NCBI RefSeq assembly: GCF_050320075.1
Contig: NZ_CP190018.1
DNA from: Escherichia coli
GTDB taxonomy: Bacteria > Pseudomonadota > Gammaproteobacteria > Enterobacterales > Enterobacteriaceae
DNA length: 64,000 bases
Reading direction: 5' to 3' (one strand)
Positions 41,409 through 42,012 of this stretch are shown here, piece by piece. Numbering within the stretch: position 1 is the first letter of the stretch; each line of letters opens with the position of its first letter. A model generated the notes under the pieces. The model saw only the letters and a program-made list of their open reading frames with translations, ran no database searches and was not told the DNA's origin. The translations under genes were made by a program, and so were the position numbers.

Positions 41409-41785
41409 GAAGCTGACCAGACAGTCGCCGCTTCGTCGTCGTCCTCTTCGGGGGAGACGGGCGGAGGGGAGGAAAGTCCGGGCTCCATAGGGCAGGGTGC
41501 CAGGTAACGCCTGGGGGGGAAACCCACGACCAGTGCAACAGAGAGCAAACCGCCGATGGCCCGCGCAAGCGGGATCAGGTAAGGGTGAAAGGGTGCGGTA
41601 AGAGCGCACCGCGCGGCTGGTAACAGTCCGTGGCACGGTAAACTCCACCCGGAGCAAGGCCAAATAGGGGTTCATAAGGTACGGCCCGTACTGAACCCGG
41701 GTAGGCTGCTTGAGCCAGTGAGCGATTGCTGGCCTAGATGAATGACTGTCCACGACAGAACCCGGCTTATCGGTCAGTTTCACCT
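41409..41785 (+). ncRNA. rnpB: RNase P RNA component (M1 RNA), 377 nt
   Basis: Begins gaagctgaccagacagtcgccgcttcgtcgtcgtcctcttcgggggagacgggcggaggggaggaaagtccgggctcc; contains the conserved P4 region; ends ...cggtcagtttcacct. Confidence 0.93.
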
Positions 41786-41795
41786 GATTTACGTA

Positions 41796-41826
41796 AAAAC
41801 CCGCTTCGGCGGGTTTTTGCTTTTGG
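41796..41826 (+). terminator. rnpB intrinsic terminator
   Basis: aaaaacccgcttcggcgggtttttgcttttg hairpin plus T-run. Confidence 0.8.
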
Positions 41827-41836
41827 AGGGGCAGAA

Positions 41837-41948
41837 AGATGAATGACTGTCCACGACACTATACCCAAAAGAAAGCGGCTTATCGGTCAGTTTCACCTGG
41901 TTTAACGAAAACCCGCCAGCGTAAACTGGCGGGTTTTTGCTTTTTGGA
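41837..41948 (+). repeat. Repeat unit duplicating the rnpB 3' end plus terminator (rnpB-downstream repeat)
   Basis: agatgaatgactgtccacgaca...cggcttatcggtcagtttcacctg...aaaacccgcc...ggcgggtttttgcttt recurs about 100 bp downstream of the first copy at 41736..41829; partial third start at about 41957. Confidence 0.8.
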
Positions 41949-42012
41949 GCATAGTGTAAGATGAATAAATATCTACGGTATTAATAATAGACTTTGTAAG
42001 AAATTATTAAGT

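Follow-up and report, generated by a model that had tools for sequence, protein, structure and literature searches.

A short allele of the tandem repeat block 3' of Escherichia coli rnpB, probably made of recombination-varied truncated gene ends with putative back-up terminators

Repeated sequences in the 3' flank of rnpB, the gene for RNase P RNA, were reportedly described for Escherichia coli K-12 by Reed and Altman in PNAS in 1983. Three other kinds of locus resemble such a block in part: tandem fail-safe intrinsic terminators, such as rrnB T1-T2; the 3' ends of tRNA and tmRNA genes, which are targeted by integrative elements and found duplicated at the integration sites of genomic islands; and the VNTR-like intergenic repeats of enterobacteria. 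The stretch of E. coli DNA analysed here (64,000 nt, hereafter the window) carries a short allele of the already known block 3' of rnpB, and we consider it likely that this array consists of truncated rnpB 3' ends that are varied by recombination and provide back-up terminators. Like rrnB T1-T2, it has two strong GC-rich hairpins with U tracts in series after a highly expressed stable-RNA gene, but the second, predicted terminator arose by duplication of the gene's own 3' end, and the number of terminators varies between strains. As at tRNA and tmRNA integration sites, a partial 3'-end copy lies downstream of an intact stable-RNA gene and beside AT-rich variable DNA; the rnpB copies, however, are directly tandem, with neither an integrase nor an island between them. 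With the VNTR-like loci the array shares a copy number that varies between strains in steps of one unit of about 113 bp, although the repeat is not anonymous: each unit joins a terminator to a pseudogene fragment of an essential RNA gene.

The closest relative is the K-12 array itself. It occupies the same locus, its units start at AGATGAATG inside rnpB and end after the terminator, and its extra units share with the window's the linker lengthened by 12 nt and the pattern of open reading frames. The two differ in that K-12 has three full extra units and the window one, that the K-12 array lacks the "type B" terminator hairpin carried by the window's extra unit, and that a REP pair interrupts the last unit in K-12, whereas the window array is free of REP. 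The REP palindrome consensus (GCCGGATGCGGCG...) was absent from 41700-42100 and was found in the window only at 976, 56300 and 59449. In K-12 MG1655, Tandem Repeats Finder reported a repeat in the same place with a period of 113, 3.5 copies and 96% matches, and the gap between rnpB and yhaC measures 613 bp compared with 227 bp in the window. An earlier reading of this DNA from its letters alone (the sequence-only reading) had pointed to a block of repeats after rnpB in K-12, and the agreement in place and sequence family confirms that the feature is the same.

The window was 100% identical over the query to E. coli CFSAN061763, a record in which rnpB is also annotated. Both have the gene order garR-garK-rnpB-yhaC-yhaB-tdcR with yhaC convergent with rnpB, and the neighbourhood garK, rnpB, repeats, yhaC is that of K-12. 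The array fills the 227-bp gap from the end of rnpB to the stop codon of yhaC (Table 1). Directly after it the GC content drops from about 0.53 to about 0.30, values in yhaC being 0.29-0.36 as against 0.52-0.55 upstream, where garK-rnpB lies in the same range of 0.52-0.55. The whole of yhaC-yhaB (42013-43791) is strongly AT-rich, with a GC content of 0.29-0.40.

Table 1. Features of the rnpB repeat array and its surroundings (positions in the window)
Feature	Position	Strand	Basis and description
rnpB, RNase P RNA (M1 RNA), class A	41409-41785	+	Rfam RF00010, 318.6 bits, E 1e-104, full model 1-367
Unit 1	41736-41836 (101 nt)	+	Last 50 nt of rnpB, 3' trailer, terminator T1, tail ...GGAGGGGCAGAA
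T1 hairpin, "type A"	41793-41820	+	AAAAACCCGC-TTCG-GCGGGTTTTT, then GCTTTT to 41824; inverted repeat I5
Unit 2	41837-41958 (122 nt)	+	Complete additional copy: shortened rnpB 3' end with terminator T2 and tail ...TTGGAGCATAGTGTA
Variant linker of unit 2	41858-41876	+	ACTATACCCAAA inserted at 41858-41869; AGAAAGC instead of AGAACCC
T2 hairpin, "type B"	41906-41939	+	GAAAACCCGCCAG-CGTAAA-CTGGCGGGTTTTT; terminator scan; T tract to 41945
Degenerate start of a third unit	41959-41980	+	AGATGAATAAATATCTACGGTA; 16/22 identical to unit start, AGATGAAT exact, in phase after unit-2 tail
34-codon ORF	41738-41842	+	ORF list; ATG of AGATGAATG
41-codon ORF	41839-41964	+	ORF list; ATG of AGATGAATG, GGAGG 9 nt upstream
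yhaC, convergent AT-rich neighbour	42013-43200	-	ORF and annotation of the identical record

The rnpB part of unit 1 comprises J18/2, P2-3', J2/4, P4-3' and P1-3'. The unit was recognised from the direct-repeat families D1-D3 and from its alignment with unit 2, and its boundaries were set from 13 E. coli arrays. Tandem Repeats Finder reported nothing on the window, because there are only about two copies and these differ by indels, and the repeats were found instead by a direct-repeat search and gapped alignment. Three direct repeats are exact: AGATGAATGACTGTCCACGACA, which starts inside rnpB (41736-41757 and 41837-41858, 22/22), GGCTTATCGGTCAGTTTCACCTG (41764-41786 and 41877-41899, 23/23) and GGCGGGTTTTTGCTTTT (41808-41824 and 41928-41944, 17/17). 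The 23-mer has no further copy in the 64-kb window, where none is expected by chance. Aligned with gaps, units 1 and 2 are identical at 90 of 95 positions with a score of 104, compared with a mean of 3.2 (SD 2.4, maximum 15) in 1000 shuffles, and the tandem duplication of the rnpB tail and terminator proposed in the sequence-only reading is well established. That reading's "short internal substitution" stood in so far as unit 2 differs internally; the difference is actually a 12-nt insertion after CCACGAC, two substitutions at 41874-41875 (AGAACCC to AGAAAGC) and a different, longer terminator hairpin. Insertion and substitutions hit the J2/4-P4 segment and alter the equivalent of the P4 3' strand. 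The resulting linker is CACGACACTATACCCAAAAGAAAGCGG, of which CTATACCCAAAAGAAAG is specific to the long form, and the part of unit 2 before the terminator is near-identical to units 2-4 of K-12. A third unit had been placed at about 41957; the unit start does recur, but it begins at 41959 and consists of a 22-nt degenerate stub only, beyond which the repeat search and alignment found no similarity to the unit. The estimate of about two copies agrees with rnpB's own unit, one full extra unit and this remnant. At a permissive Rfam threshold, the T1 trailer and first half of unit 2 (41786-41898) gave a partial, sub-threshold match to RNaseP_bact_a (model 252-367, 18.9 bits); no family reached its gathering score, and the other matches were terminator look-alikes. 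The extra units are most likely truncated, non-functional copies of the final ~50 nt of rnpB, each with a complete intrinsic terminator.

To place the window allele within the species, we compared 13 E. coli arrays (the window and 12 other strains) unit by unit. In all 13 the first unit is rnpB's own and has the short linker, every extra unit has the 12-nt longer linker, and the array closes with the same degenerate AGATGAATA... stub just ahead of the yhaC stop codon, even where there is no extra unit. The window array equals the minimal arrangement of EC1 and GPEC1337 plus one unit. Two terminator alleles occur, type A (CCCGCTTCGGCGGG) and type B (CCCGCCAGCGTAAACTGGCGGG); the type B hairpin is found in unit 2 of the window, in unit 2 of BL21 and in Salmonella units, and it forms rnpB's own terminator in E. 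coli LR-51. The mixture of types across units fits recombination between them. Both types, A with the tetraloop GCTTCGGC and B with a longer stem and 6-nt loop, occur in the arrays of Escherichia as well as Salmonella, at shuffled unit positions. Arrays of the K-12 type have the REP pair inside the last, decayed unit, followed by a remnant terminator and the common AGATGAATA stub; in MG1655 the pair lies on the reverse strand at about 3269700-3269860 of NC_000913.3.

For a wider survey we used a chimeric query joining unique rnpB sequence to the 3' end of yhaC and sampled 60 of 5425 genomes at even steps down the ranking, reading the span classes against sequenced representatives of each class. 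The spans from rnpB to yhaC fall into classes about 113 bp apart, corresponding to zero to four extra units: none at 869-872 bp (3 sampled genomes), one at 982-992 bp (8, a class that includes the window at 992 and O157:H7), one carrying a REP pair at 1146-1157 bp (12), two at 1263-1271 bp (5), three, the K-12 type, at 1375-1376 bp (14) and four at 1489 bp (2). Eleven further genomes were ST131-like (EC958-type), taken as phylogroup B2; they have lost yhaC-yhaB by deletion and contain no extra unit. In four others the distance between the flanks was too great for joining, and the last one matched in rnpB alone. The comparison with K-12 and other strains that the sequence-only reading had called for thus gives three extra units in K-12 and a range of 0-4 in E. 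coli. The window allele occurs at an identity of at least 99% in 157 of the 5425 genomes (about 3%), and O157:H7-type strains vary among themselves (span 982 vs 869). In ST131 (EC958) and SCU-125, which we take to be phylogroup B2 strains, yhaC-yhaB is replaced by short pseudogene fragments, and the extra rnpB units are absent too. A literature search found no paper that uses the rnpB array for typing. An array of variable copy number can confuse short-read assembly, annotation of the rnpB 3' end and terminator prediction.

Both units of the window have a GC-rich stem-loop directly adjoined by a U-rich tract, as expected of intrinsic terminators. T1 folds at -19.4 kcal/mol (z -4.1, none of 200 shuffles as good; minus strand -13.9); it was missed by the simple terminator scan because its A and T tracts pair. 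The second terminator hairpin suggested by the sequence-only reading is there, with a predicted fold of -24.3 kcal/mol (z -4.1; minus strand -24.2, z -5.9) followed by a T tract. In T1 and T2 alike, an A tract precedes the hairpin and a T tract follows it. A promoter scan found no promoter-like site within 41786-41975, and the extra units, having no promoter of their own, would therefore be transcribed by read-through only.

Terminator collections include "rnpB T1" among their standard natural terminators (PMC3643576), and processing of pM1 RNA by RNase E is mentioned in PMC10126417. In the portion of the supplements to Adams et al. 2021 (PMC7815308) considered here, the dominant K-12 3' end is the mature rnpB end at 3270216(-), and separate ends at the repeat terminators do not appear. 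Reads from the rnpB strand extend downstream of the whole array and end opposite yhaC, in a region where termination depends partly on Rho: at 3269111(-), a position that corresponds to about 42500 in the window, coverage was 2111 upstream and 34 downstream without bicyclomycin, and 2831 and 107 with it, according to the same supplements. This is the region of Rho-dependent termination on the rnpB strand inside yhaC that supplementary file 2 of that study lists from DirectRNA-seq with and without bicyclomycin. From this region it follows that some K-12 transcription passes all of the repeat terminators, although the signal could come partly from an unmapped promoter.

These observations suggest a simple history. 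One old duplication of the rnpB 3' end would have been followed by the insertion in the linker, after which the array would grow and shrink through slippage between units or through unequal homologous recombination. If a crossover fell on the 3' side of the variant linker, it would change the copy number and mix the terminator alleles while sparing rnpB; on the 5' side, it would carry the defective linker into the essential gene, and the product would not persist. That rnpB always has the short linker and the extra units the long one could thus be explained by the purging of 5' crossovers, with no function of the linker needed. Most rnpB transcription presumably ends at T1, the precursor being trimmed to the mature 3' end, and the extra units would act as putative serial back-up terminators between the convergent rnpB and yhaC. 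Given the A and T tracts on either side, the predicted hairpins may terminate yhaC as well and are plausibly back-up, possibly bidirectional, insulators between the two genes. The exact copy number would be close to neutral. Strains with zero extra units are common (B2 and EC1-type strains), and S. houtenae has none either; the extra units are therefore dispensable, which counts against any important function, the role of back-up terminator included. On the other hand, the persistence of extra units across many genera can be read as selection for something beyond spare terminators.

To see how far the arrangement extends, we searched a single genome of each species for pairs of AGATGAATGNCNG motifs at a distance of 93-123 nt. 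The scan gave 64 loci, of which 9 were unrelated repeats and 55, from 54 genomes, lay at the rnpB 3' end; as Salmonella units start with GGATGAATG, this count is a lower bound. All but one of the 54 genomes (53) are Enterobacterales or Enterobacterales-like metagenome-assembled genomes from about 20 genera, among them Enterobacter, Citrobacter, Klebsiella, Raoultella, Kosakonia, Lelliottia, Cedecea, Buttiauxella, Atlantibacter, Mangrovibacter, Phytobacter, Pantoea, Erwinia, Pectobacterium, Serratia, Rouxiella and other Escherichia species; the remaining one is a Neptuniibacter. The Enterobacterales arrays have 1-6 extra units (loci L014-L077; for example L037 at 5627-5963, L044 and L056). In nearly all arrays the first interval falls short of the later ones by about 12 nt (96/108, 100/112 and 106/118, for instance), because the linker of the extra units measures 22-23 nt compared with 10 nt in rnpB. 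Nearly all extra units combine a linker 12-13 nt longer than rnpB's with a C to G change in the equivalent of the P4 3' strand, and in Atlantibacter RC6 (L071) the one rnpB-type duplicate also has a P4-strand substitution. The Neptuniibacter linker (L036) is likewise 13 nt longer and has a different sequence; this array is perhaps of independent origin. Salmonella Senftenberg has six extra units, with types A and B both present, and its linker is that of E. coli, identical in two units and with 1-3 substitutions in the others. Among the complete units from other genera, 82 of 100 pass a strict test for hairpin and T tract, the failures being mostly due to a mismatch or bulge in the stem. The 3' parts of units 1 and 2 are 95% identical (median) within a genome and 63% identical between genomes, which indicates concerted evolution, or homogenisation, of the units, and makes the rnpB arrays a natural example of concerted evolution in a tandem array anchored on an essential gene. 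The arrangement of an intact rnpB followed by copies with a linker about 12 nt longer, which recurred across the Enterobacterales arrays of the scan, was not found documented in the searchable papers.

In a different reading, the extra units form an ancient selected module across the Enterobacterales, made of a pseudo-3' end with a disabled P4 plus a terminator. If this were so, the read-through transcripts or the DNA repeats themselves would serve rnpB expression, 3' processing or the stability of the locus, and they would constitute an undescribed family of RNA or DNA elements absent from Rfam, perhaps with an independent origin in Neptuniibacter. We regard such a module as unlikely, and its RNA version, in which the pseudo-3' end acts on RNase P biogenesis after read-through, either by drawing off RNase E or the C5 protein as a decoy or by aiding folding or processing, and is conserved across the Enterobacterales for that reason, as slightly less likely again. 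The same architecture in at least 53 Enterobacterales genomes and in Salmonella, the long linker and P4-strand change of nearly every extra unit, and the substitution in the Atlantibacter duplicate count in favour of the RNA version. Tests for structure in the linker count against it. A linker hairpin, CGC-TTTCT-ATGAA-AGAAC-GCG, which would sequester the P4 3' strand and seemed by eye to have compensatory changes, was rejected by pair counting and RNAalifold: among 71 distinct units, two pairs had changed on both sides compared with 1.7 expected, 63.7% of cells were paired compared with 63.9% in shuffles, and RNAalifold found no structure, with an energy of about 0. Extra constraint on the linker was also rejected, the identity of its core between genomes (0.63) being the same as that of the rest of the unit, the tails included (0.63). 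The lack of an own promoter, the frequent copy number of zero in E. coli and Salmonella and the absence of a matching Rfam family weigh against the RNA module too, and its linker pattern is explained by recombination together with purifying selection on rnpB.

Far less probable is that the units encode small basic peptides, translated from the ATG of AGATGAATG behind an upstream GGAGG and with the stop of one unit overlapping the start of the next as ATGA. The window does contain ORFs of 34 and 41 codons, the K-12 units give 38-codon ORFs with overlapping stops and starts, and the same peptides occasionally appear under the label "hypothetical protein", in a few E. coli and Shigella records. 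The ATGA overlap of the unit ORFs resembles translational coupling. Homologous units, however, do not conserve the reading frame, and on this ground a small-protein gene was rejected: where the linker reads ...CTATGA.. or ..TTATGA.., as in many genera, a stop codon ends the frame after 9 codons, and the C-terminal third is wholly different between terminator alleles A and B. Moreover, the first ORF lies inside rnpB without a Shine-Dalgarno sequence, the ORFs are downstream of a strong terminator, and the 13 RefSeq (PGAP) annotations of E. coli that were examined, K-12 MG1655 among them, do not list these ORFs as intact genes. The 41-codon ORF is probably not a gene, and the array is a place where gene callers sometimes invent small "hypothetical proteins".

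We give equally little credence to the idea that the copies are attL/attR-like scars of elements targeting the rnpB 3' end, with the AT-rich yhaC-yhaB as a remnant island. It would account for the fall in GC content right after the array, for the degenerate unit start adjoining AT-rich DNA and for the missing yhaC-yhaB of the B2 strains; yet these ST131-like strains keep fragments of yhaC, which indicates loss by internal deletion and not by clean excision. The units stand head to tail with no DNA in between, no integrase is found between rnpB and tdcR, and the tails of the units agree with the rnpB trailer of the host in question. The sequence was found in no genuine phage, the "phage" matches being either misfiled chromosomal contigs or weak. 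An origin from a phage or integrative element was rejected, as the copies do not flank an integrase-bearing element and the phage collection returned misfiled chromosomal records. Three records filed as plasmid or phage hold Salmonella chromosomal DNA around rnpB: the Senftenberg record (L078, NZ_LN868944.1 "plasmid 2", 727905 bp), OR851195.1 ("Salmonella phage S.Kent 1-2-1", 2507 bp, L080) and AGRM01000002.1 from the phage collection (L079). The "phage" contig OR851195.1 starts inside an rnpB unit and continues into the sequence that follows the Senftenberg array, and host contamination or mislabelling is the likely cause of these entries.

Chance similarity or an assembly artefact, in whose favour stands the silence of Tandem Repeats Finder on the window, has a vanishingly small probability and is refuted by the alignment score relative to the shuffle maximum, by the exact 23-mer and by the recurrence of the allele in 157 independent complete genomes.

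Two minor features of the flanks complete the description. In garK, the mechanically called ORF of 408 codons (40150-41376) begins at an upstream ATG, and the gene has 381 codons in the identical RefSeq record (1146 bp, window 40231-41376). At the other end of the array, an AT-rich inverted repeat, ATAGACTTTGTAA / TTATTAAGTCTAT, at 41987-42016 overlaps the yhaC stop codon and may weakly terminate yhaC transcription on the minus strand.
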